This document shows positions 4,917-23,243 of a stretch of DNA of 64,000 bases, piece by piece (the stretch's first letter is position 1; each line of letters starts with the position of its first letter). The notes beneath the pieces are model-generated. The model made no database searches and was not told where the DNA came from. It was given only the letters and a program-made list of their open reading frames with translations. This stretch comes from an uncultured Verrucomicrobiota bacterium (GTDB taxonomy: Bacteria; Verrucomicrobiota; Kiritimatiellia; JAAZAB01), in the NCBI GenBank assembly GCA_964630555.1, contig CAZVVD010000002.1, forward strand, positions 1,334 to 65,333. Reading direction: 5' to 3'. A program made the translations under genes and the position numbers.

Positions 4917-6398
4917 TCAGTAGTTCCGGTTGTATTCCGCGAGGATGTCAGGGAGCCCGCGGGCCTCGTCGAGGAACCGCTCCTTTGCAAACGCCTGCCA
5001 GCGCTCGTTGACGCGCCGGCGGCAGATGCGTTTGACGTTCAGCAGGTGGCGAGCCGTGAGGTTGGCGCCGGCGTCCGCCCGGCCGCCCGGGCCGAAGCCC
5101 GGCAGGAACGAGGTCTTGAGCCGGTTGAGGATTCCGCCCATCGCCCCCAGCGTCACCGGGGTGTTGACCAGGATGGCGCCGGCCTTGAGGCAGGTTGCAA
5201 AGGTCCGGATGGCCTCCTCGTCGTTGGCGTAGATCCCGGCGATGCGGCCGGCCCCGGGCAGGGAATTCAGCTCGACGCACAGGTTGACGGCGGCCTCGAA
5301 GGTGGGTCGGACATACAAGGTCAGCACGGGCGCCAGCTTGGCGCCCGCCAGGGGATGCGCGTCCCCCGGGCCGGCCTGCCGGGCCACCAGCAGGCGCGTG
5401 CCGGCCGGCGCGGCGATCCCGGCCATCTTCGCCAGCGCTTCTGCGGACTGGCCGATGCCCTCCGGCCGCAGCGCGCCCTCGTCCTCCTCCTGGAACAGGA
5501 CGGCGGCCAGCTTCGCGGCGTCCGCCGCGTCCAGGAAATGGGCGCCCTGGCCTTGCAGCTCGCGGGCGACTGCCGCGGCGATTTTTTCCTCCGCCACCAC
5601 GGACTGCTCACTGGCGAAGAAGACGCCGTGGTCGAAGGTCTTCGAGCGCGCGATCTCCCGGATCGCGAAAGGGAGGTCGGCGCTGGCGTCGAGCAGGACC
5701 GGGACGTTGTCGGGCGTGGAAACGATGGCGGGCGTGCCCAGGCCGGCGGCCGCCCCGGCCCGGTCCGGGCGGCCCATGGCCACGATCAGGGCCAGGCCCG
5801 GCTGGCTCATGATGGCATGGTCCATTTCGCGCGAGGATTCGCCCAGGCACTGGAGGCAGTCCTCGGGCGCCCCGGCCGCCAGGGCCGCCTCCCCGCACAC
5901 CCGCACGGCCTCGGCGCAGCAGCGCAGCGCCCGGGATGGGGGGCTCACCAGCAGGGGGTTGCGGGTCTTCAGGGCCACCAGGATCATGAAGAGGACCGTG
6001 GAGGTCGGGCTCGGCAGGGGGGCCTTGAAGAAAACGGGCCCGATGGGCTCGGCGATTTCGGTCAGGCCGGCGGCCTCGTCGCGGCCGATCACGCCGACCG
6101 TCGGCTCGTGCCGGAGGGTCTCGTGGACGCACTGGGTGGCGAACACGTTTTTCAGGACCTTGTCCTGCCAGACGCCGAGCCCGGATTCCTCGCAGGCCAG
6201 TTTGGCCAGGCGCACGCGGGCGTCGAACCCGGCATGGCAGGCGCGCTCGACGATCCGGTCCACCTGCTGCTGGTTGAGCTGGTGAAAGACGGCGGCGGCC
6301 ATAGCCGCCTTGTCGAGGAGTTCCTTGGCCCGGAAGTGATCCTTGGAGAGCACCGTGCTCTCGCCGAAGACGGCCATCCGATGTCCTGAAACGGCCAT
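4917..6398 (-). CDS. CoA-acylating (acetylating) aldehyde dehydrogenase, AdhE N-terminal domain / EutE-PduP family
   Basis: Matches the AdhE ALDH domain over its length (MAVxG..., ...KTRNPLLVSP..., catalytic Cys region FASEQS). Stop is 6 nt upstream of the acs ATG (translational coupling). Start chosen at ATG 6398 (MAVSGHRMAVFGE); the longer ORF start would overlap the 6472 palindrome. Confidence 0.75.
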   Translation of the reverse strand: MAVSGHRMAVFGESTVLSKDHFRAKELLDKAAMAAAVFHQLNQQQVDRIVERACHAGFDARVRLAKLACEESGLGVWQDKVLKNVFATQCVHETLRHEPTVGVIGRDEAAGLTEIAEPIGPVFFKAPLPSPTSTVLFMILVALKTRNPLLVSPPSRALRCCAEAVRVCGEAALAAGAPEDCLQCLGESSREMDHAIMSQPGLALIVAMGRPDRAGAAAGLGTPAIVSTPDNVPVLLDASADLPFAIREIARSKTFDHGVFFASEQSVVAEEKIAAAVARELQGQGAHFLDAADAAKLAAVLFQEEDEGALRPEGIGQSAEALAKMAGIAAPAGTRLLVARQAGPGDAHPLAGAKLAPVLTLYVRPTFEAAVNLCVELNSLPGAGRIAGIYANDEEAIRTFATCLKAGAILVNTPVTLGAMGGILNRLKTSFLPGFGPGGRADAGANLTARHLLNVKRICRRRVNERWQAFAKERFLDEARGLPDILAEYNRNY

Positions 6399-6838: not shown

Positions 6839-9377
6839 CATGCGCTACCTGTTCTACAAGCGCGAGATTTCCTTCCAGCGCCCGGACTCACCCCTGGCCC
6901 AGCCGCCCGAGCGCTGGGACGCTTTTTTCGCCGAAATCGTCCGCCGCGGGTTCAACGGGTTCGTGATCTATTCAACCTATCATCCGTTCCAGTTCATCCT
7001 CGACTACCGGGGATTCCCCGCCGCCGCCGAGGCTTCCCCCGCCGGCCGGCGCCGGACGCGGGAAAGACTCAACCGGGTTCTCGCGCTGGCGCACCGCCGC
7101 GGGCTGACCACCTTTCTCCAGCACTATGTCGGGCACTTCACCCCCGCCCTGGGACGCCGTCTCGGCCTCGGCCTGCGCGAGTCCGAGGCGACCCGCCTGG
7201 CGGGCTTCGAGCACCCCCTGATCCGGAACTACCTGCGCTATGGCTACCGCGCGATTTTCAGGCAGTGTCCCGACCTGGACGGACTGTACTTCAACTACGA
7301 AAGCTGCGGCGCCAACGCCGGCCTCGTCCTCGACACCGCCATCCGCGAGGCCAACCGAATGGCCCGGCACCCCGTGTTCCTGCACCGGCTCTGGGGCTTC
7401 AGCGTGCCCCGGCTGATGCGCCGGCTGGTGGACGCCTACCGCGGGCTTTCGCTCGTCAGCCACAAGATCTCGGACACCAAGGATACGTATTTCTACCCGT
7501 CCGCCGACACGCGTGTCCGGGAGTGGAAGCGGCATCTGCCGGGCGCGCCCTTCCTGTTCGAGGTCGGCCCCTGCCACAACTGCGCCGCCAACCTGGCGCG
7601 GACCTTGTGGAGCGACTACGATTTCGTGCGGGATCTCCTCGACGACGCGGCCAGGAAAGGCTGTGACGGCTTCTCGTTCCACCAGGTCAATGACGCCGTG
7701 GCGGCGGACACCCCCCTCGGACGGCTGAACGTCCTGCACCTGGAGGCCATGACCGATTTTATCCGCGGCGTCAGGAAAACCCCGCGTCAACAGGCGGCCG
7801 CCCTGGCGGCGGCGACCGGCAGTCGCGGACGGAACGCCGCCCGGCTCTACCGGGCGATCACCGCCGCCAGTCGGCCCGTGATCCTCGCGCATCAGCAGTT
7901 CTGCCTGGACTCCGCCTTCGACGGCTGGCTCAATCCCGGCCGGCACTCGCTGACCCAGGAGCCGTTCTTTTACTACCCGGCCACGGAACTCAACGACCAG
8001 ACCCGCCTGTCCTGGTCGAGCGTGCGCACGGACACTTCCTGGCTGCAGAAGACGGAACGGAACAACGTCACGCCGCCCCGCTACACCCAGTACATCCTTG
8101 ACTACGTCAACCCGCGCCGCCCGCGGGCGCTCCTGCCGCCCCCGGCCATCGCCGCCGAAATCGCCCGCTGCTGCAACACCGCGGCCCGCGCGCTCCGGGG
8201 TTATCGGGACGCGCCGGGCGCCGTGCGGCGCGCCGAGATCGAACCGTACATCCGGGCGCATGGCGCCTCCGGCCTGCACGCGGCCCACGAGATCCGGGCG
8301 GCGATCGAGACGTATGCTCTTTACTTTGCGCCGTCGCCGGCGGCGTGCCTCCGGCATATCGAGCGGGCGCTCGGGCGCCTGCGGCGGGACCGGCAGGCGC
8401 CCGCCGTCAGGCTGCCGGGGAACCTGAAACCGTGGTATGCCGGTATGCCGGCCCGGGCGGCGATCGAAAAACTCCTGCGCCTGCGGCAGTTCGTGGCTGG
8501 CGGCCGGTTCCGGCCGGACGCCTTCCGCACCTTCGTGCGGTCCCGCGCGGAATACAACGAGATCCGGCGCACGGCCCGCGCCTTCCGCCTCCTGCGCGGC
8601 CCGGTGCTCGCTGCGGCCGCCCGGCAGCTGCAAGCATCCCTGCGGCTTGCCGATGAGGCCGTTGGCCTCGCGCGCGGAACGCCGCAGGAGACGCCCTGCG
8701 CGGCGTGGCGCGATTTCGTGCGGTTGGAGCTGGATCGGATGCGCCCGCCGGAGACGGACTGTCCGCGGCGCGGGCCGTCCGGCGCCCTGCGGCTGTATCA
8801 CGACGACTGCTTCCGCACCGGCGAGGACCATCTCGATGATTTTCTCGGCTTCTTTGAGCCGCAGGACTACACATACCGCGCCGACCTGTGGTTCTCGGTT
8901 GGCCAGGACGGCAACGGGATCACCGTGACGCTCGAGGAGCGCGGCGTGGACCCGAAGGCGCGCCGGGCGCGCTGGCGCGAATTTGCGCGCGCCTCGGACC
9001 TGACCTACGTCATGCGGCTGTATTTTGACGTCGGGAACGACGCCCGCGAGGTGCAAAGCTACCTGGTCCTGCCCCTCGGCGCCCGCGCCTACCGAACCGG
9101 CTTTTCGATCGAGGGGGAGCGCGACCTCCTGCACCGCCCGCTGGCGGCTCTCGACGCGCGCGGCCGGACCGCTTACCGCGAACGGGCCGACGGCTATTCC
9201 CTGGCGTTCCGCATTCCGTTTGCCGAACTGGGGGTGGGGCGGGCGCGGGGCGCGTGGGGCTTCAACCTCACGGCCAACCCTTCGATCCAAAGGAACCGGC
9301 AGTACACCTGGTCCGCGCAGTACGACTCGGGCTGCGGGAATCCCTATCTCTTCGGCAAACTCGGCTTTCAGCAATGA
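6839..9377 (+). CDS. large hypothetical protein, possible glycoside-hydrolase-like TIM-barrel with C-terminal CBM9/DOMON-like domain
   Basis: Long ORF with GC3-rich coding bias. Start placed at ATG 6839 (MRYLFYKREISF) because the upstream in-frame extension is packed with perfect hairpins. An alternative ATG at 6756 has an AAAGGAAG RBS. Function is inferred only from weak motif resemblance. Confidence 0.55.
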
Positions 9378-10026: not shown

Positions 10027-10956
10027 GTGGCGTCATCGAAAGAGAGCCAGGAGTTTTGGCAGGCGGGCCGCGGCCGGCAGCCATTCGGCGCGCCGGGCAA
10101 TCCGTTTGACCTGGCTGGACTGCGCCGGTGCATGGAGGCGCGGCAGGCGCCGGCCGACCGGGAGGTCCGCTGCGCCCGCCTGGACCTTGACGGCATGCCC
10201 TGCGAGTGGGTGCTGGCGCCCGGCGCGGATCCCGATGTGCGGCTGCTGTACCTGCATGGCGGCGGCTTTGTTTCCGGTTCCGGCGCCAACTACCTCCCCC
10301 TGGCGGCCGACCTTTCGGCGGCGGCCGGGTGCGCCGTGCTCCTGCCCGACTACCGGCTGGCCCCGGAAAACCCTTTCCCGGCCGGGCTTGAGGACTGCCT
10401 CCGCGCCCAGGACTGGATGACCCGAACGGGCCCTGCCGGCCCCGCGGCGGCAAAAGCGACCTTCATCGCGGGCGACTCCGCCGGCGGCGGCTTGACCCTG
10501 GCGACCCTGCTGGCGCTGAGGGACCGCGGCCGCGCGTTGCCGCAGGGCGCCATCCCGATGTCGGCCTTCGCGGACTTGACCCTGGCCAGCGAGTCCATCC
10601 GGAGCCAGGCCGGCAATGAGATCTACATGCATCCCGCTTGCCTGCCGGAGTTCGTCAAACTTTACGCCGGCGGCCAGGATACCCGCCATCCCCTGGTCTC
10701 GCCGGTCTTTGGGGATTACACGGGGATCCCGCCGCTGCTCATCCAGGTCGGCGAGTACGAGGTCATTCGCGATGACAGCCTCCGGGTGGCCGCCAAGGCC
10801 CGCGCGGACGGCGTCAGAGTGCAGCTTGAAGTCTGGCCGGGGCAGGTCCACGTGTTCCAGGTTCGCGGGCTCCCGGAGAGCCGCGCGGCCATCGCCCGTG
10901 TCGGGGCCTTCATCCGGAATCTCTGCGCCGGCCACGCCGCGGCCGCGCGCTCGTGA
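10027..10956 (+). CDS. alpha/beta hydrolase, esterase/lipase of hormone-sensitive-lipase family
   Basis: HGGGF oxyanion motif, GDSAGG nucleophile elbow, C-terminal His region; GTG start. Confidence 0.8.
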   Translation: MASSKESQEFWQAGRGRQPFGAPGNPFDLAGLRRCMEARQAPADREVRCARLDLDGMPCEWVLAPGADPDVRLLYLHGGGFVSGSGANYLPLAADLSAAAGCAVLLPDYRLAPENPFPAGLEDCLRAQDWMTRTGPAGPAAAKATFIAGDSAGGGLTLATLLALRDRGRALPQGAIPMSAFADLTLASESIRSQAGNEIYMHPACLPEFVKLYAGGQDTRHPLVSPVFGDYTGIPPLLIQVGEYEVIRDDSLRVAAKARADGVRVQLEVWPGQVHVFQVRGLPESRAAIARVGAFIRNLCAGHAAAARS

Positions 10957-11004
10957 CGGGCGGCGTGGGCAAGGCCGCCGAGAATGCGTTTGATCTCCGA
11001 TGGG

Positions 11005-12129
11005 CTATGTCTGATCAGGCGCGTTGAATGAAATGTTCAGGCGGTAGCGGGTGCCCTTCAGTTGCCCGCTCTTCTTCAAGGCTCCATTGGCCGCCAGTTC
11101 CGCGAGATCGCGGGTGGCCGTCGCGCGCGATGTTTTCGTGATGCGGATATATTTTTCCGCGCTGAGCCCACCGACAAACCCGTCCGGGCCTTCCAGGAAA
11201 AGACGCGTGATGACTTTCTTCTGCCGCTCGTTGAATACCCCCCGGTGCCGGTCGTAAAATTTTGCTTTCGCGATCAGGAATTCGATCCGGCTCACCGTGT
11301 GCGCCTGCGCTTCCAACACGGTCTCAGCAAAATACACCAGCCAGTCGGTTATCTCGTTGTCACGGTTGACCCGTTCGAGCGCGGCATAGTACGCCGGCTT
11401 GCTGCGTTCGATGGTCTGAGCCAAGGCGATCAGGGTAGGTTGACCCAGGCACTGCGCCAGGGCTTTTTCCGCGAGCGCCCGGCCGATCCGTCCGTTGCCG
11501 TCCTCGAAGGGATGGATGCTGACGAAGTAAAGATGAGCGATTCCCGCCCGCGCGAGCGCGGCGACTGGTTTCGCTCCTCCAGGCGCGGAATCGTTGAACC
11601 AGTGGACGAACCGGTCCATTTCAAGCTGCACCCGGCCGGAGGGCGGTGCCTCGAAATGGATGGTGGGCTCGTGAATCGGACCGGAGATCACTTGCATGGG
11701 TTCATCATGGGTTCGGTAACCGTCCGTCGCCGTAAGGTCGCGGCGCCCTTTGACCAGGGCGGCATACCATGCAAAGAGCGCGCCGTGGGTCAGCGCTTCG
11801 CCATAGGTCGAGTAAAGGTTCACCATCATTTCCGCGAGGCCCTGCTCGGCGGCGGGAACCCGGCGGTGATCGGCCTGCAGGCCAAACTGCCTGCGAATGG
11901 ACGACTGCAGGCTGTCCCGGTCCAGGTATTCGCCCTCGATCTCAGCGGTCTTGAGCGCTTCGTCGCTGATCAAATCGATGGTCAAGGCCTCCTTGTCTCC
12001 CTGCGCCAGGTGTTTGACCGCCCCGCACAACTCGCCCGCCAGGCGCTGAAAACGGCTCTCCAGCGCTGGGAGCGCTGTCAGTTTATACCTGAAATTGGGC
12101 CAATCAGACCGCTGCCAGTTCCAAGTCAT
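11005..12129 (-). CDS. fic: Fic family protein (Fic/DOC adenylyltransferase-type with C-terminal wHTH)
   Basis: Canonical FIC motif HPFEDGNGRIGR; 374 aa; gene GC is clearly lower than its surroundings. Confidence 0.85.
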   Translation of the reverse strand: MTWNWQRSDWPNFRYKLTALPALESRFQRLAGELCGAVKHLAQGDKEALTIDLISDEALKTAEIEGEYLDRDSLQSSIRRQFGLQADHRRVPAAEQGLAEMMVNLYSTYGEALTHGALFAWYAALVKGRRDLTATDGYRTHDEPMQVISGPIHEPTIHFEAPPSGRVQLEMDRFVHWFNDSAPGGAKPVAALARAGIAHLYFVSIHPFEDGNGRIGRALAEKALAQCLGQPTLIALAQTIERSKPAYYAALERVNRDNEITDWLVYFAETVLEAQAHTVSRIEFLIAKAKFYDRHRGVFNERQKKVITRLFLEGPDGFVGGLSAEKYIRITKTSRATATRDLAELAANGALKKSGQLKGTRYRLNISFNAPDQT

Positions 12130-12148
12130 GAGTTATATCCCCCTTTTT

Positions 12149-12182
12149 TATAACTCACAATACAGCAGAATTGTGAGTTATA
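12149..12182. promoter_or_regulatory. 13-bp inverted repeat TATAACTCACAAT-N8-ATTGTGAGTTATA 20-50 nt upstream of fic start
   Basis: Read directly; sits in an AT-rich spacer; TGAGTTATATC also occurs as a direct repeat (12128-12138, 12172-12182). Confidence 0.4.
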
Positions 12183-12400
12183 TCAAGTTATTTTTTGAAT
12201 CAGGCGTCACCCAGGCAGGATCAATCCCTGAGATGTTTGCACCGACCCTGTCGGCACTCCGCGCGCCGTAGTCCATGCCGTTCTCCTCGTTGGAGTGGGT
12301 AGGGGGAGTCACTTGGGCGAAATGGGATGGGTTCTGAAGCATGGTTCACTGGCCGGATCTGGATGTCGATTTGACGCTCGATATGATCGACCATCCCGAA

Positions 12401-12746
12401 TGGTATCCGCTCAGATACAAGTAGATGCAAACATTCTTCTTGTTCACGGCGCGGGGCAGGGCGGGTGGTGCTGGGGGCAGCTGACCCCGCTCCTGCGCGC
12501 CGCCGGGCACGAGGCGCTCGCGCCCACCCTGACCGGGCTTGGCGAGCGCGCGCACCTCGCGAGCCCGGAGATCGGCCTGGAAACGCATGCCGCGACATGC
12601 TGGGCGCGCTGGCATGCGAGGACCTGCGCGGCGTGGTGCGGGTGGGGTACAACTACGGCGGCATGGTGATCGCCGCCGTGGCCGAGTTGCTGCTCGGGCG
12701 GCTGAAAAGATGCCCCTTGGCGCCAAGTGACCGCTCTGCCGTCTGA
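12401..12746 (+). pseudogene. alpha/beta hydrolase (methylesterase-like) remnant, frameshifted and truncated
   Basis: N-terminal ILLVHGAGQGGWCWGQL...PTLTGLGER in one frame continues as DMLGAL...VRVGYNYGGMVIAAVAE in another frame near 12590. It ends at approximately 115 aa, whereas intact members of the family are approximately 260 aa. Confidence 0.45.
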
Positions 12747-12859
12747 CGGCGCGGCGACTTTTTCGAAAAATCATTTTGACCTGGCGGGAGGAAGAGAGGA
12801 AACTGCCGGCCCGGCCCCCGCCGCCGGCCAGTAGCGGCGCGGCCGGCGAGGGAGGACGC

Positions 12860-13213
12860 ATGGCCAAGTATCGCATCGCGCAACTCGACAAGGTCAAGGC
12901 CCGGCCATGCCCGTGCGGGCGGACGCGGCGGGCCTTCGTGGCGCCCGACAATCCCGTGGCGACCCTGCACCTGGTGGACATTGCGAAGACCAGCCGGGTG
13001 CATTACCACCGGAAGCTGACGGAACTCTACCTCGTCCTGGCCGGCAAGGGGCACCTGGAGCTCGACGGCCGGCGGGTGCCGGTGAAGCCCATGACGGCTG
13101 TCCTCATCAAGCCCGGCTGCCGCCACCGCGCGGTCGGCCGCCTGCGGATCGTCAACGTGCCGGTCCCGGCGTTCGATCCTGCCGACGAGTGGTTTGACGA
13201 GGGGAGCGACTGA
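12860..13213 (+). CDS. cupin domain protein
   Basis: ATG 12860 after GGGAGGAC; small beta-barrel cupin-like sequence (HYHRKLTELYLVLAGKGHLELDG). Confidence 0.65.
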   Translation: MAKYRIAQLDKVKARPCPCGRTRRAFVAPDNPVATLHLVDIAKTSRVHYHRKLTELYLVLAGKGHLELDGRRVPVKPMTAVLIKPGCRHRAVGRLRIVNVPVPAFDPADEWFDEGSD

Positions 13214-20066: not shown

Positions 20067-23000
20067 TTGGCTGGTCGTAAAATGAAAATGACCTCGGTAA
20101 AAATATGGTGTTGCGTGGCGGCGGTTGCCTTGGCCTTAAACGCGTTCACGACCGCTTTGGCGGGGTATGTATGGACCAACCTTAACTACGGTACAAGCGC
20201 GGACGTTGAGGCTCTCGCTCATGACGGGGCTACTCTATACGCAGGCGGTGAGTTCATGCACATCGACATACGGCCGTTGAATTATATAGCGAGATGGAAC
20301 GGCACGAGTTGGAACGGTCTCGGCACCGGTATGGACGGCTACGTATGGGCTTTGGTCCATGACGGAACTAGTTTGTACGCGGGTGGGAATTTCACGACAG
20401 CGGGCGGGGTGGCAGCGAATCGAGTGGCGAAGTGGAATGGCTTGAGCTGGACCAGCCTTGGCAGCGGCTTTGGCAACAGAGTCTTTGCCTTGGCACATAA
20501 CGGGACGAACCTGTACGCAGGCGGTTTATTCACGAACTCCGGCGGTATGGCGGCGAATTATGTGGCCGTGTGGAATGGCGCGAGTTGGACAAACCTTGGC
20601 ATTGGCATGAATGACCGAGTGCGTGCCTTAGCCCATGATGGGACGAACCTGTACGCGGGTGGGAATTTCACGACAGCAGGCGGGGTGGCGGCGAATTATA
20701 TCGCCATGTGGAATGGCGCGAGTTGGACCAATCTCGGAAGTGGTATGGATGGTCACGTTCTCGCTTTGGTCCATGACGGCAGGAGCCTGTATGCAGGAGG
20801 GGAGTTCAGGAACGCCGGCGGGGTAACTGTGAACTATGTGGCGAAGTGGAACGGACGGATTTGGACCATGTTTGGCAGCGGTATGGACGGTTCCGTACGC
20901 GCCTTGGACTACGACGGGACGAACCTGTACGCGGGTGGGAATTTCACGACAGCAGGCGGGGTGGCGGCGAATTATATCGCCATGTGGAATGGCGCGAGTT
21001 GGACCAATCTCGATAGCGGTATGAGCACCAACGTGTGCACCTTGACACATAACGGACTGAGTCTGTATGCGGGTGGTGAGTTCATGTTCGCCGGCGGGGT
21101 AAGGGTGTACTATGTGGCGATGAGATGTTTTACGAGTATAGCAGTATTGGGCACGAACATGGCGGAGATCGGCAATGGCGAAGCGGTGAGTGCGGCCAAA
21201 GGGACGGATTTCGGTTCCCTCGCATGGGGTGGCATTTTAAGCCATACTTTAACGATTACCAACGGTGGTGGCACCACCTTGGTAATCAGTGGAATCACGA
21301 CGAACGGGGCTGGTGCGTCGGCCTTCCGGATTGCAGGAATGCCGTCTTCCATTCCTCCCGGTCATGCCTCCAATTTTTCCGTTCAGTTCGCTCCTGCCAA
21401 CCCGGGGTTTTACACGGCAGCAGTGTTAATTGCCAATAGTTCTTTACCCTCACCGTATATCGTCAATCTGGCCGGCACGTACGCAAAGCAAAACCAGACG
21501 ATCACCAATTTTCCGAATCCGGGAAGCCAGTTAATAACCAATACAGTGCAGTTGTATGCCCAGGCCAGTTCAGGCTTGCCGATAAGCTTTATGAATTCAC
21601 CCGGCTGTCCGGTAATCTGGCAGAACGCGACCACGATCACGTTCTGCGCAACCGGCGTGGTCAACATCGTGGCTTCGCAGGCGGGTGACGCCAACTGGAA
21701 TGCCGCGCCAAATGTGACGCAGACGTTCAACGTGGTTAGTGGTTGGATCGAGGTGGATCTTGCGCTCAATGGGTATGTCTATGGGGTGACCAATACCGTG
21801 ATCCAGGGATATAACGCTACTCCACAGGTTTTCGTGGTCTATAATAGCGCCGGGCCCAATGCTATGTTTTACCAAGTCTCTGATGACATGCCATGGCTTA
21901 TGGAGAGTCCGGCGAGTGGATCAACCACAGGCGAAGTTGATACGATTGTCATGTCATATAGCGTAGCGGCGCTGAATGCAGGGACATATCACGCGGTGAT
22001 CACGGTGGTGGGCACTAACGAACTGGAGACGCTGACGACGACCAATACAGTGTCGGTGACGCTAGTGGTGCGGCCGTTGGCAAAGCTGGGGTGCGACGGA
22101 GTCGATCTTCAGTCGCAGTCCCGCCAGGGCCATTCGCCGGCGTCCGCAGTTTTCACGGTGTGGAATGCGAGCGAACCGGGAACCATCGCCTGGACGGCAG
22201 AGGCCGACTCCGACTGGCTGGCCGCCACGCCCGCCTCGGGAACGAGCGCGGGCGAACCGGACACGGTGACGCTGAATTTCGACACCTCCGCCCTGGGCAT
22301 GGGCCGCTACCGCGGGCACCTCACGCTGCGCGGGACCGACGCCCTGACCGGGACCGAGGCGCTGCAGTCGCCGAAAGCGCTGACGGTGGACTTGGCTGTC
22401 CTGGGGACGAAAGACCTGGACTTCCTGGGCGACGGCAACGTTTCGGACCTGGCGGTGTACCAGGAAAGCACGGGCAACTGGTACATCCAGCGGCTGTCCG
22501 ACCGGGCGCGCCTGGTGGAATGGATGGGCGGGCCCGGCTACCTGCCGGCTCCCGGCGATTATGACGGCGACGGGCGCGCGGACCTGGGGATCTACCGTCC
22601 GGAAAACGGGGCGGGCTATGCCCGGCGGATTGGCAGCGACTGGATCACCACCCTGGGCGCCTGGGGCAGCCTGGGGTGCCGGCCGGTGCCCGGCGATTAC
22701 GACGGCGATGGTCGCACCGATTTCATGATCTACCAGGAGTCGTCCGGCACGTGGTATCTCAGGCGTTCCTCGGACGAGGCGGTCGTATCCGGGCAATTCG
22801 GCGGCCCGGGTTTTTCTGCCCAGGCCGGCGATTTTGACGGGGACGGCGCTTCGGACGCCGCCATTTACGACGAGGCGAGCGGCCGCTGGTACATCATCAC
22901 CGTGGGCGGCGTGGTGATCGCCTGGGACCTGCTCTGGGGCGGCGTAGAATACACCCCGGTGACGGGCGACTTCGACGGCGACCGGCGGACTGACGTGGGG

Positions 23001-23243
23001 GCCTACCGCGAGGACACCGGGCTGTGGTTCATGGCGGACGCCGCCGGCAACACGATCGGGTGGTGGCTGTCGTGGGGCGCGCCCGGCCACCAGCCGGTGG
23101 CCAAGGATTACGACGGCGACGGTGTCGCGGACATGGCGGTTTACGAGACCATGACGGGGCGCTGGTATATCCGGACGGTTGCCGGCGCGGTCCTGGAATA
23201 CGGCCTGGTCTGGGGCGGGCCGGGTTTCACGCCCGCGCCGTAG
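20067..23243 (+). CDS. large secreted repeat protein: signal peptide, approximately 8 tandem approximately 46-aa beta-propeller-type repeats (WNGxSWxxLGxGxxxxVxALxxDGxxLYAGGxFTxAGG), Ig-like middle, five C-terminal FG-GAP-like repeats (GDYDGDGxxD...WY)
   Basis: Single continuous 1058-aa ORF. Repeats are visible at both protein and DNA level. GC is approximately 50% for 20067-22080 and rises to the approximately 65-68% genome background for the rest. Confidence 0.75.
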   Translation: MAGRKMKMTSVKIWCCVAAVALALNAFTTALAGYVWTNLNYGTSADVEALAHDGATLYAGGEFMHIDIRPLNYIARWNGTSWNGLGTGMDGYVWALVHDGTSLYAGGNFTTAGGVAANRVAKWNGLSWTSLGSGFGNRVFALAHNGTNLYAGGLFTNSGGMAANYVAVWNGASWTNLGIGMNDRVRALAHDGTNLYAGGNFTTAGGVAANYIAMWNGASWTNLGSGMDGHVLALVHDGRSLYAGGEFRNAGGVTVNYVAKWNGRIWTMFGSGMDGSVRALDYDGTNLYAGGNFTTAGGVAANYIAMWNGASWTNLDSGMSTNVCTLTHNGLSLYAGGEFMFAGGVRVYYVAMRCFTSIAVLGTNMAEIGNGEAVSAAKGTDFGSLAWGGILSHTLTITNGGGTTLVISGITTNGAGASAFRIAGMPSSIPPGHASNFSVQFAPANPGFYTAAVLIANSSLPSPYIVNLAGTYAKQNQTITNFPNPGSQLITNTVQLYAQASSGLPISFMNSPGCPVIWQNATTITFCATGVVNIVASQAGDANWNAAPNVTQTFNVVSGWIEVDLALNGYVYGVTNTVIQGYNATPQVFVVYNSAGPNAMFYQVSDDMPWLMESPASGSTTGEVDTIVMSYSVAALNAGTYHAVITVVGTNELETLTTTNTVSVTLVVRPLAKLGCDGVDLQSQSRQGHSPASAVFTVWNASEPGTIAWTAEADSDWLAATPASGTSAGEPDTVTLNFDTSALGMGRYRGHLTLRGTDALTGTEALQSPKALTVDLAVLGTKDLDFLGDGNVSDLAVYQESTGNWYIQRLSDRARLVEWMGGPGYLPAPGDYDGDGRADLGIYRPENGAGYARRIGSDWITTLGAWGSLGCRPVPGDYDGDGRTDFMIYQESSGTWYLRRSSDEAVVSGQFGGPGFSAQAGDFDGDGASDAAIYDEASGRWYIITVGGVVIAWDLLWGGVEYTPVTGDFDGDRRTDVGAYREDTGLWFMADAAGNTIGWWLSWGAPGHQPVAKDYDGDGVADMAVYETMTGRWYIRTVAGAVLEYGLVWGGPGFTPAP

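Follow-up and report, generated by a model that had tools for sequence, protein, structure and literature searches.

Class I FicT/FicA and Doc/Phd systems combine a Fido-fold toxin with an inhibitory helix that keeps it inactive, and their promoters are autoregulated. The Fic enzymes with a winged helix-turn-helix (wHTH) that are now actively studied, CbFic2, SoFic and CccR, are AMPylases that depend on dimerisation and DNA. CccR of Yersinia pseudotuberculosis (YPK_0951) is a class II Fic protein with the inhibitory motif SARIEG, a C-terminal HTH and dimerisation via helix alpha1; it is a T6SS effector that AMPylates FtsZ. Its footprint covers two inverted 10-bp boxes at the -35/-10 of its own promoter, which it represses 3.3-fold (PMC9755527). 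CbFic2 of Coxiella burnetii (CBU_0822, PDB 8CIL) has the inhibitory helix TSAIEG and has been proposed to be a host-directed histone H3 AMPylase. Its HTH binds DNA, and DNA-induced dimerisation switches the enzyme from AMPylation to deAMPylation; the DNA tests used random oligonucleotides only, which were bound with nM affinity, with the question of a specific motif left unanswered by the authors (PMC10628234). The dimer of SoFic (Shewanella oneidensis SO_4266) binds in front of its own gene, in the 100 bp directly before the start codon (bioRxiv 10.64898/2026.07.09.737422). SoFic is a single-gene anti-phage defence family (bioRxiv 10.1101/2022.05.11.491447; PMC12249575); in E. coli, Sofic is followed by an antitoxin of 47 aa, AS1 (PMC12249575). 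Among these three enzymes, a DNA site has so far been defined only for CccR.

Here we analyse a Fic-wHTH gene in a 64-kb window, by which we mean the whole stretch of DNA under study. Our preferred reading, to which we assign a probability of roughly 0.75, is that the locus is a solitary mobile one-gene cassette encoding a self-inhibited Fic AMPylase, the wHTH of which would mediate autorepression via four operator boxes. Autorepression by a Fic-wHTH protein has already been shown for CccR and suggested for SoFic; what we describe here is the box layout of the subfamily.

A class II Fic protein with its own inhibitory motif

The Fic gene (11005..12129, minus strand) is an intact ORF of 374 aa, and its product has the domain order DUF4172, Fic and C-terminal winged helix (class II Fic). 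A Pfam search found DUF4172 (PF13776) at residues 3-84 with 91 bits (cut-off 25) and the Fic domain (PF02661) with 52.6 bits (cut-off 24), together with a weak match to DIP2311-like_C in the C-terminal wHTH. The intact HPFEDGNGR motif reported in the first-pass annotation is indeed present: translation and alignment place the catalytic motif H206-PFEDGNGR-214 at 11488..11514 (minus strand). Its H, D, G, N, G and R are unchanged throughout an alignment of 66 sequences, and H206PFEDGNGRIGR217 matches the Fido signature HxFx(D/E)GNGRxxR. That annotation also considered an inhibitory helix within the protein itself, and translation of 11932..11949 (minus strand) yields T61-A-E-I-E65-G66, which fits (S/T)xxxE(G/N). 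Across 66 homologues I64, E65 and G66 do not vary, and T61 is at least 90% conserved; the motif falls in helix 43-64 of the AF2 model (pLDDT 91.5). By this inhibitory motif, located in the same chain and N-terminal to the Fic motif, the protein is a class II Fic protein. The winged helix-turn-helix (11038..11229, minus strand; AF2 secondary structure) consists of helices H301-312 and H324-331, the recognition helix H335-347 and wing strands 351-354 and 361-364. Relatives of the protein are numerous, amounting to at least 7,996 90%-identity clusters at E <= 1e-20.

Given an inhibitory helix of its own, TAEIEG, the Fic gene would need no antitoxin gene. None had been evident on first reading, and this was borne out, with no candidate upstream or downstream and no partner in the relatives. 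The only small ORF on the upstream side (12178-12342, 54 aa) was rejected as an antitoxin: it has no Pfam match and no (S/T)xxxE(G/N) motif, and it is not conserved in the relatives. On the other side, the Fic stop (11005) lies just 48 nt from the stop of a convergent esterase gene (10956), a gap too small for an AS1-like downstream antitoxin. A search for a separate antitoxin gene of the class I type, carrying the inhibitory motif, found none at the locus and no conserved partner in the relatives. The locus is thus best read as a mobile, probably self-regulated single-gene cassette and not as a toxin-antitoxin pair that is missing its partner.

Four half-sites bracket a promoter-like sequence

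The spacer in front of the Fic gene is AT-rich, as first described, with a GC content of 0.28 over 12130-12200. The stretch 12203-12400 has a GC content of about 0.5-0.6. The 13-bp inverted repeat and the direct repeats noted in the first-pass annotation are exact: the arms TATAACTCACAAT (12149-12161) and ATTGTGAGTTATA (12170-12182) are 100% complementary around an 8-nt spacer, and TGAGTTATATC is found at 12129-12139 and again at 12174-12184. The 9-mer TGAGTTATA has three exact copies inside 54 bp and no other copy in 64 kb; allowing one mismatch gives 6 matches versus 1.14 expected, and 0 of 100 shuffles had as many as 6. Block shuffles predict 0.05 perfect inverted repeats per window with arms of 13 or more and a spacer of at most 20, and the window has 12 such registers. 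The palindrome is therefore non-random, yet not unique in the window.

The palindrome is the inner pair (half-sites 2 and 3) among four 10-bp half-sites, nTATAACTCA, arranged as two inverted repeats, each with a 9-bp spacer, that lie about 45 bp from each other and bracket a sigma-70-like promoter. All of these elements are on the minus strand. Half-site 4, ATATAACTCA on the gene strand (12129..12138), ends in the A of the ATG start codon. Within the 9-bp spacer of sites 3 and 4 lies a Shine-Dalgarno-like AGGGGG (12139..12144), a position occupied in homologous loci by the family consensus AaAGG. Half-site 3, TGAGTTATAA on the gene strand (12148..12157), is the core of the left arm of the palindrome, and half-site 2, again ATATAACTCA (12174..12183), is the core of the right arm. 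Half-site 1 (12193..12202), 9 bp from site 2, is degenerate, reading TGATTCAAAA on the gene strand and agreeing with the local half-site at 7/10 bases. The first position of the half-site is A in sites 2 and 4 and T in site 3. A promoter scan identified the -35-like hexamer TTGATA (12181..12186) 18 bp upstream of the -10-like hexamer TATTGT (12157..12162), the last T of which is the first T of site 3, so that the inverted boxes 2 and 3 flank the TTGATA-18-TATTGT promoter. Transcription is predicted to begin near 12150, within site 3. No second paired operator unit was found elsewhere in the 64-kb window.

The array is conserved in register at homologous loci

We compared the region with 81 genome loci (set 1) and 80 metagenome, viral and close-relative loci (set 2). 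The box layout was found, with its ATG register unchanged, in most of these approximately 160 homologous loci, which come from many phyla. Site 4 lies at the ATG register in 75/81 loci of set 1 and 65/80 of set 2, and site 3 at -28 in 74/81 (set 1) and at -28/-27 in 59/80 (set 2). Site 2 is located at -53/-54 in 76/81 and 59/80 loci, and site 1 at -72/-73 in 64/81 and 51/80, respectively. The 9-bp spacer within pairs 1-2 and 3-4 is fixed in 65/69 loci, whereas the spacer between sites 2 and 3 varies, being 15 or 16 bp over the loci and 16 bp in the window. Judged from these loci, it is the 9-bp-spacer inverted repeat (3+4 and 1+2), not the inner palindrome, that is conserved as a unit. The original proposal that the palindrome is an operator would have been refuted by its absence from orthologous loci; it is present there, each arm corresponding to one half-site (2 or 3) of a conserved array, in register at 64-76 of the 81 and 51-65 of the 80 homologous loci depending on the site. 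The proposal is thus supported, with the refinement that the spacing which is conserved is that of the 9-bp pairs.

The half-site sequence itself varies by locus, with a variable-triplet identity of 0.66 within a locus versus 0.47 between loci. Other subfamilies have different boxes, TGCGGnGAAT or GAAGCGATTA-N6-TAATCGCTTC, and keep the layout. In 35/72 loci the last base of the -10-like box is also the first base of site 3; in 15 more the box ends at -2, and other registers have 0-1 loci. The -35 element is weakly defined over the loci, and no family-wide definition of it was possible. When about 13 kb of each of 76 loci was searched for further units, only two extra operator units were detected. 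One, at locus L001, is a truncated second box array directly downstream of the L001 Fic gene itself and represents a cassette remnant; the other sits in L061. Locus-specific half-sites occur at 0.49 per kb in the 300 nt downstream and at 0.15 per kb elsewhere, an approximately 3-fold difference.

Covariation of the winged helix with the half-site

Two places in the wHTH co-vary with the half-site. Codons 358-359 (K-G; 11053..11058, minus strand), at the wing tip, co-vary with operator position 1 with z-scores of 26.6 and 17.3, the next column reaching 8.7. A wing tip of H, Y or F pairs with C at this position, and G, S or A pairs with T or A. For wing residue 359, one set gives counts of 50/1/0/23 (p = 3e-18) and a second, independent set 34/1/3/16 (p = 7e-10), in statistics that count related sequences as independent; among the 20 closest contrasting pairs, the wing residues are identical in 3 despite a different operator position 1. 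Operator position 7, either C or A, co-varies in turn with codons 333-335 (T-S-R; 11125..11133, minus strand) at the recognition-helix N-cap, with MI z-scores of 9-13.6 and Fisher p values of 9e-4 (set 1) and 2e-6 (set 2), where related sequences are likewise counted individually. In the AF2 model the co-varying residues fall on the wing tip and the recognition-helix N-cap. Together with the precedent of CccR, the covariation supports the idea that the C-terminal wHTH reads the boxes. On this view the wing tip would recognise the inner edge of the half-site, and the recognition helix, through its N-cap, the middle.

Composition, neighbourhood and mobility

The Fic gene has a GC content of 0.609 and a GC3 of 0.75, compared with a window GC of 0.672 and a median GC3 of 0.86. 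Its composition is below that of its neighbours, as had been noticed at first sight, the genes flanking it having GC3 values of 0.87 and 0.93. By blastn, the span similar to the closest relatives at the nucleotide level is 11032..12209 (minus strand), that is, operator plus gene: relative L083 is 82% identical over 12209..11032, L086 84% over 12196..11035 and L089 77% over 12188..11035. Outside the operator-plus-gene span, blastn found no similarity to these three. Shared gene order, which would have spoken against an insertion, was not seen either: the relatives on which synteny was assessed, 77-84% identical, retain gene and operator amid unrelated neighbour genes. In addition, 125 relatives are found on IMG/VR contigs. 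No recombinase or partner gene conserved beside the cassette was found in the relatives' neighbourhoods, and screening of about 10800-13000 for flanking direct repeats and target-site duplications yielded nothing beyond GC-rich matches attributable to chance. The missing synteny and the lower GC3 fit horizontal acquisition of the Fic cassette. By these similarity borders, the transferred unit is operator plus gene and nothing else.

Within 3 kb of the Fic gene are the esterase gene, a hydrolase pseudogene, a cupin gene and a FAD oxidoreductase gene. The pseudogene (12430..12746, plus strand) is a SABP2/HNL-like alpha/beta-hydrolase with a frameshift near 12590. ORF 12295-12669 has a sub-threshold match to Abhydrolase_6 (24.5 bits versus 26.3); joining its frame near 12590 to that of 12465-12746 gives a match of the SABP2/hydroxynitrile-lyase type (E 1.4e-8) that covers residues about 4-126 of these 260-290-aa hydrolases. 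The nucleophile elbow GHSxGG appears as GYNYGG, with the nucleophile Ser replaced by Asn, and the homology stops just beyond. Truncation has left about 100 of about 260 residues. Besides the frameshift and the truncation, both of which had been recognised from the start, it has therefore also lost the catalytic Ser. The first-pass annotation, which placed it directly beyond the Fic gene and its spacer, saw a small horizontally acquired insertion here. While the borders, synteny and GC3 agree with insertion of gene and operator, we rejected the pseudogene as part of the transferred unit, as its GC is host-like (0.694) and it has no similarity in the relatives' flanks.

Discussion

In the mechanism that we propose, a class II Fic AMPylase would be restrained by its own TAEIEG helix; homology to CbFic2, SoFic and CccR suggests that it dimerises via the DUF4172 helix at its N terminus. 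The covariation suggests that the C-terminal winged helix reads 10-bp half-sites (T/A)TATAACTCA. The distal half-site pair would flank the -35, and the proximal pair would cover the -10/+1 region, the ribosome-binding site and the start codon. Occupancy of the boxes would then block RNA polymerase, and this negative autoregulation, for which CccR provides the experimental case, would keep a potentially toxic enzyme low. We count the nM affinity of CbFic2 for random DNA against a sequence-specific reading of the operator. The degenerate site 1, the A of sites 2 and 4 where site 3 has T, and the weakly defined -35 also speak against the model.

Three other accounts of the boxes have to be weighed against autorepression by the Fic protein. 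The boxes could act as an RNA switch, in which a hairpin of boxes 3 and 4 hides the ribosome-binding site and AUG and box 2 offers an alternative pairing, as in an attenuator. The boxes are mutually complementary, the last one contains the AUG, and the box copies of one locus change together, which would also be expected from compensatory RNA evolution. However, the mismatches have no G·U bias (3:4, GU 20, AC 12, other 43; 2:3, GU 21, AC 29; 1:2, GU 14, AC 43), which speaks for an operator acting as DNA rather than a hairpin in RNA, and box 3 would be largely untranscribed, given that the conserved -10-like box reaches to its first base. The types of mismatch and the position of the promoter led us to discard the hairpin. 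The boxes also co-vary with the predicted DNA-contacting residues of the Fic protein, and Rfam gave no match (best E-value 1.6); we consider an RNA switch extremely improbable. It is very unlikely, though slightly less so, that the boxes are bound by a different factor or that the mobile cassette uses them for recombination or insertion. Such a role would suit the coincidence of the 5' similarity border to the relatives with the outermost box, the truncated second array downstream of the L001 Fic gene and the excess of half-sites in the downstream 300 nt, but not the fixed register of the boxes to promoter and ATG or the way in which box sequence tracks the wHTH of the adjacent protein. Nor is a conserved recombinase or partner gene present beside the cassette, and flanking direct repeats were not found in the window.

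The Fic protein might also bind the boxes as an activator or a wider transcription factor, with autoregulation incidental. CccR controls further genes in recipient cells (PMC9755527), and the distal pair, upstream of and over the -35, is in a position compatible with activation. The proximal pair, in contrast, lies on the -10/+1, SD and ATG, the position of a repressor. The window has no second paired unit, and of the only two extra units in 76 loci at least one (that of L001) is a cassette remnant, so we regard this account as unlikely.

Autorepression could be accompanied by a further role of the operator. Since CbFic2 becomes a deAMPylating dimer on binding DNA, contact with the operator may likewise determine the enzymatic state of the protein described here, although this is speculative. 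A stronger version, in which the operator is a specific allosteric ligand that holds the Fic enzyme as a harmless deAMPylating dimer, strikes us as doubtful. Were it true, a single chromosomal operator would hold only about two dimers, and operator loss, titration or protein overproduction would release AMPylating monomers. Phage-induced DNA damage and competition by incoming DNA would be possible triggers. The one-gene cassette would then combine sensor and effector in one self-contained unit, which might serve, for instance, in abortive infection, and the covariation of wing tip and recognition helix would be a specificity code insulating paralogous cassettes.

Overall the comparison supplies concrete candidate target sequences for a very large Fic-wHTH subfamily, and two protein positions, the wing tip and the recognition-helix N-cap, are predicted to set box specificity. 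For CbFic2 itself the candidate site is GAAGCGATTA-N6-TAATCGCTTC, with GAAGCGATTAATGTTATAATCGCTTC as the candidate target.

CbFic2 is the closest solved relative of the window protein (phmmer E 6e-64, 34% identity). The two have the DUF4172-Fic-wHTH architecture and the inhibitory helix in common, and Foldseek aligns 8CIL with our model over the full length including the winged helix (E 2.5e-23, TM 0.85-0.90). The upstream region of CbFic2 differs, with GAAGCGATTA-N6-TAATCGCTTC placed around TATAAT and a third copy, and the window organism gives no hint of the histone H3 AMPylase role proposed for CbFic2. Like SoFic, the window protein is a class II Fic that stands alone and carries a wHTH at its C terminus, and the SoFic family is widespread and patchy, as is the case for the window cassette. 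The PADLOC SoFic profile PDLC03963 matches window residues 26-359 (profile 31-345 of 361) with E 3.9e-41. The protein nevertheless falls outside the SoFic equivalog NCBIfam NF046030 (60.3 bits versus a cut-off of 550), its sequence similarity to SoFic is confined to the Fic core (E 1.6e-8), and the AS1 antitoxin of E. coli Sofic has no counterpart in the short gap behind the window gene. In FicT/FicA and Doc/Phd the inhibitory helix and DNA binding are on a separate antitoxin, whereas in the window both are in one polypeptide. CccR is only distantly related to the window protein, judging from entry 7XUX, which we take to be CccR (E 2.4e-4, TM about 0.52). In CccR and at the window locus alike, inverted 10-bp boxes overlap the protein's own -35/-10, and the CccR box AGATAATCAT and the window nTATAACTCAT(G) have the end ..A(A)TCAT in common. 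The layouts differ, CccR having one pair (10 bp - N26 - 10 bp) and the window two 9-bp-spacer pairs with an inner distance of 16 bp; the outward-facing pair of CccR, with its 26-bp spacer, resembles the inner 2-3 pair of the window more than the 9-bp-spacer pairs. A box over the start codon is present at site 4 of the window, whereas none has been reported for CccR.

Domain structure of the Fic protein

The Fic gene (11005-12129, minus strand) encodes a 374-aa protein that matches Pfam DUF4172 (91 bits) and Fic (52.6 bits), with a weak winged-helix-like match at its C-terminus. The intact HPFEDGNGR motif reported by the first-pass annotation is present (H206PFEDGNGRIGR217), and a search for the inhibitory (S/T)xxxE(G/N) motif, which that annotation had proposed, identified T61AEIEG66, whose I, E and G do not vary across 66 homologues. 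Since this motif lies N-terminal to the catalytic motif, the protein is a class II Fic and would not need a separate antitoxin. A confident AlphaFold model built on the 66-homologue alignment (pLDDT 91.5) agrees along its whole length with the Coxiella burnetii CbFic2 crystal structure (8CIL; TM 0.85-0.90; sequence E-value 6e-64). The predicted winged helix consists of helices 301-312 and 324-331, a recognition helix at 335-347 and wing strands at 351-354 and 361-364. At E <= 1e-20 the family comprises at least 7,996 clusters, which makes it very large.

Four boxes in fixed register with the Fic start codon

The 13-bp palindrome (12149-12182) and direct repeats described earlier upstream of the Fic gene are both exact. 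The window contains three copies of TGAGTTATA, all inside one 54-bp stretch, and block shuffles give an expectation of 0.05 perfect 13-bp inverted repeats per window. On the gene strand, four 10-bp half-sites are ordered site 1-N9-site 2-N16-site 3-N9-site 4; read on the minus strand, sites 2 and 4 are both ATATAACTCA, site 3 is TGAGTTATAA and site 1 is the degenerate TGATTCAAAA. Site 4 ends on the A of the Fic ATG, and an AGGGGG ribosome-binding site is predicted within the 3-4 spacer. A promoter scan indicated a sigma-70-like promoter upstream of Fic (TTGATA-18-TATTGT), with the putative -35 placed against site 2 and the putative -10 ending on the first T of site 3.

To follow the array across genomes, we examined 120 nt upstream of the gene at 80 loci from reference genomes (50-64% identity; Alpha- and Gammaproteobacteria, Bacteroidota, Acidobacteriota, Verrucomicrobiota, Planctomycetota and others) for nTATnnnTCA or its complement, with positions counted relative to the ATG and sites counted out of 81. 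These regions carry the same array, and matches pile up at fixed distances: site 4 at -9 (75/81 loci), site 3 at -28 (74/81), site 2 at -53/-54 (76/81) and site 1 at -72/-73 (64/81). Sites 1 and 2 are separated by 9 bp in 65 of 69 loci and register fixes the distance between sites 3 and 4, whereas 15 or 16 bp separate sites 2 and 3; what is conserved, therefore, is the unit TGAGnnATAG-N9-CTATnnCTCA, which each array has twice. The inner palindrome proposed earlier as an operator, formed by sites 2 and 3, is present at these loci with its boxes in register to the ATG, but the conserved unit is the N9 pair instead. A second set of 80 loci (72 metagenome, 5 viral-contig and 3 close-relative) has the same site positions. 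At 35 of 72 loci the last base of a -10-like hexamer coincides with the first base of site 3, and at 15 more it lies two bases upstream, compared with 0-1 loci in any other register.

Additional boxes were seen at two loci. At L061, a paired unit (TGAGCTATAAATGATAGCATTATAGCTCA, 5761-5789) lies outside the four-site array, 225 nt upstream of the Fic start. In the alphaproteobacterial locus L001, a second box array and promoter (..TTTTATAACTCA..GGAGTTATAAAAAGGAATCCTATAACTCATG; 7180-7290) just 3' of the Fic gene is followed by only 12 codons, which suggests a leftover of a second cassette that inserted beside the first.

An mRNA hairpin that hides the Fic AUG was a serious rival explanation, since the boxes are complementary to one another. 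It is disfavoured on three grounds. Where complementary boxes mismatch, there is no G·U bias in the three pairs scored (3:4, 20 G·U, 12 A·C and 43 other; 2:3, 21 G·U and 29 A·C; 1:2, 14 G·U and 43 A·C); the -10 ends at site 3, implying that this site is largely untranscribed; and an Rfam search gave no match. The best reading of the array is negative autoregulation of the Fic gene by its own protein, in which Fic dimers would bind the two inverted repeats of their promoter, blocking access to the -35 and the -10/+1 region as well as to the SD and the ATG.

Box sequence covaries with the winged helix

Half-site sequence varies between loci (TATAACTCA, TATAGCTCA, TATCGCTCA, TATCGATCA and others), and we calculated the mutual information of every operator position with all protein columns. 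Residues 358 and 359 rank highest for position 1 (z = 26.6 and 17.3; next column 8.7), and residues 333-335 are among the top columns for position 7 (z = 9-13.6). C at position 1 pairs with H/Y at residue 359, and T or A with G/S/A (50/1/0/23 in the first set, Fisher p = 3e-18; 34/1/3/16 in the second, p = 7e-10), and position 7 covaries with residue 335 in the two sets (p = 9e-4 and 2e-6), although these p-values overstate independence because the sequences are related. Among the 20 closest contrasting pairs, 3 lack the switch of residues. The window obeys the rule, with K358-G359 and T or A at position 1. The AlphaFold model puts residue 359 at the wing tip and residues 333-335 at the recognition-helix cap, both DNA-contacting elements of a winged helix.

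The picture of protein-matched boxes is strengthened by the differing boxes of distant subfamilies. An IMG/VR subfamily (L101-L123, ~36% identical), which differs in recognition helix (KCSQDTALRDI) and wing (GGRSTSY), has 4-6 copies of TGCGGnGAAT/ATTCnCCGCA in fixed register in the ~130 nt before each Fic start; the start codon is often overlapped (..CCGCATG). CbFic2 and its relatives have GAAGCGATTA-N6-TAATCGCTTC around TATAAT; upstream of CbFic2 itself (L081, 1420-1500) this is a perfect 10-bp inverted repeat, with a third copy present. The right arm of the CbFic2-type repeat abuts the ATG in L250 (of L250-L252), so its Fic mRNA looks leaderless.

Sequence context of the Fic cassette

Consistent with the horizontal acquisition suggested by the first-pass annotation, relatives 77-84% identical keep the gene and boxes amid unrelated neighbours (peptidase and AAA_14 ATPase; HicB-like and BNR-repeat genes; a glycosyltransferase cluster). 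To locate the insertion borders, as had been proposed, nucleotide similarity to these relatives was followed; it runs from 12188-12209, the outer array edge, to ~11032. GC3 of the Fic gene (0.75) falls between the window median (0.86) and these relatives (0.67-0.70), which fits acquisition followed by partial amelioration. We found 125 Fic relatives on IMG/VR contigs and no target-site duplication around the cassette.

The neighbouring decayed esterase gene (12430-12746, plus strand) is indeed truncated and frameshifted: it retains the N-terminal third of a SABP2/hydroxynitrile-lyase-like hydrolase, with a frameshift near 12590 and GYNYGG for GHSxGG, beyond which homology is lost. Because its GC is 0.694 and no relative has it next to Fic, it is a resident pseudogene outside the cassette. 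The first-pass observation was confirmed overall and its interpretation supported, with refinements on this gene and the conserved unit.

Several other features were noted. A terminator-like hairpin followed by a T-run (12737-12756, plus strand) lies at the end of the truncated hydrolase frame. The ~200 bp between operator and pseudogene (12203-12400), intermediate in GC (0.5-0.6), have no similarity to the relatives' flanks, and their sole ORF (54 aa, 12178-12342, minus strand) is unsupported. An AAA_14 + DUF4143 ATPase gene adjoins the cassette in the otherwise unrelated loci L083 (8241-9617) and L250 (1-327), which may be coincidence or a common defence-island context. A long ORF at 20067-23243 (plus strand), low for the window in GC (0.603) and GC3 (0.72), may be another acquired gene.

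Comparison with known Fic systems

The PADLOC 'SoFic' defence profile matches the protein (E 3.9e-41), which falls far short of the NCBIfam SoFic equivalog; we would call it SoFic-like, not SoFic. E. coli Sofic has the AS1 antitoxin, whereas this locus leaves no room for AS1. The closest relative (84% identity) has a 78-aa ORF without Pfam match, absent from the window, that begins 7 nt after the Fic stop (L086, 1918-2154; L088, 1401-1637) and may be a partner of the AS1 kind.

The literature searched contained no earlier description of the four-box grammar, of a box that overlaps the start codon or of covariation with the wing and recognition helix; these features come from sequence comparison and are directly testable. 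Autoregulation itself is already published in principle for other Fic-wHTH proteins. CccR of Yersinia pseudotuberculosis represses its own promoter, where it footprints on AGATAATCAT-N26-ATGATAATCT (PMC9755527), and dimers of Shewanella oneidensis SoFic bind the 100-bp stretch that precedes their start codon (preprint, bioRxiv 10.64898/2026.07.09.737422). CbFic2, tested with random DNA only, binds DNA via its HTH and switches to a deAMPylating dimer (PMC10628234); GAAGCGATTA-N6-TAATCGCTTC is a candidate specific target for this protein.
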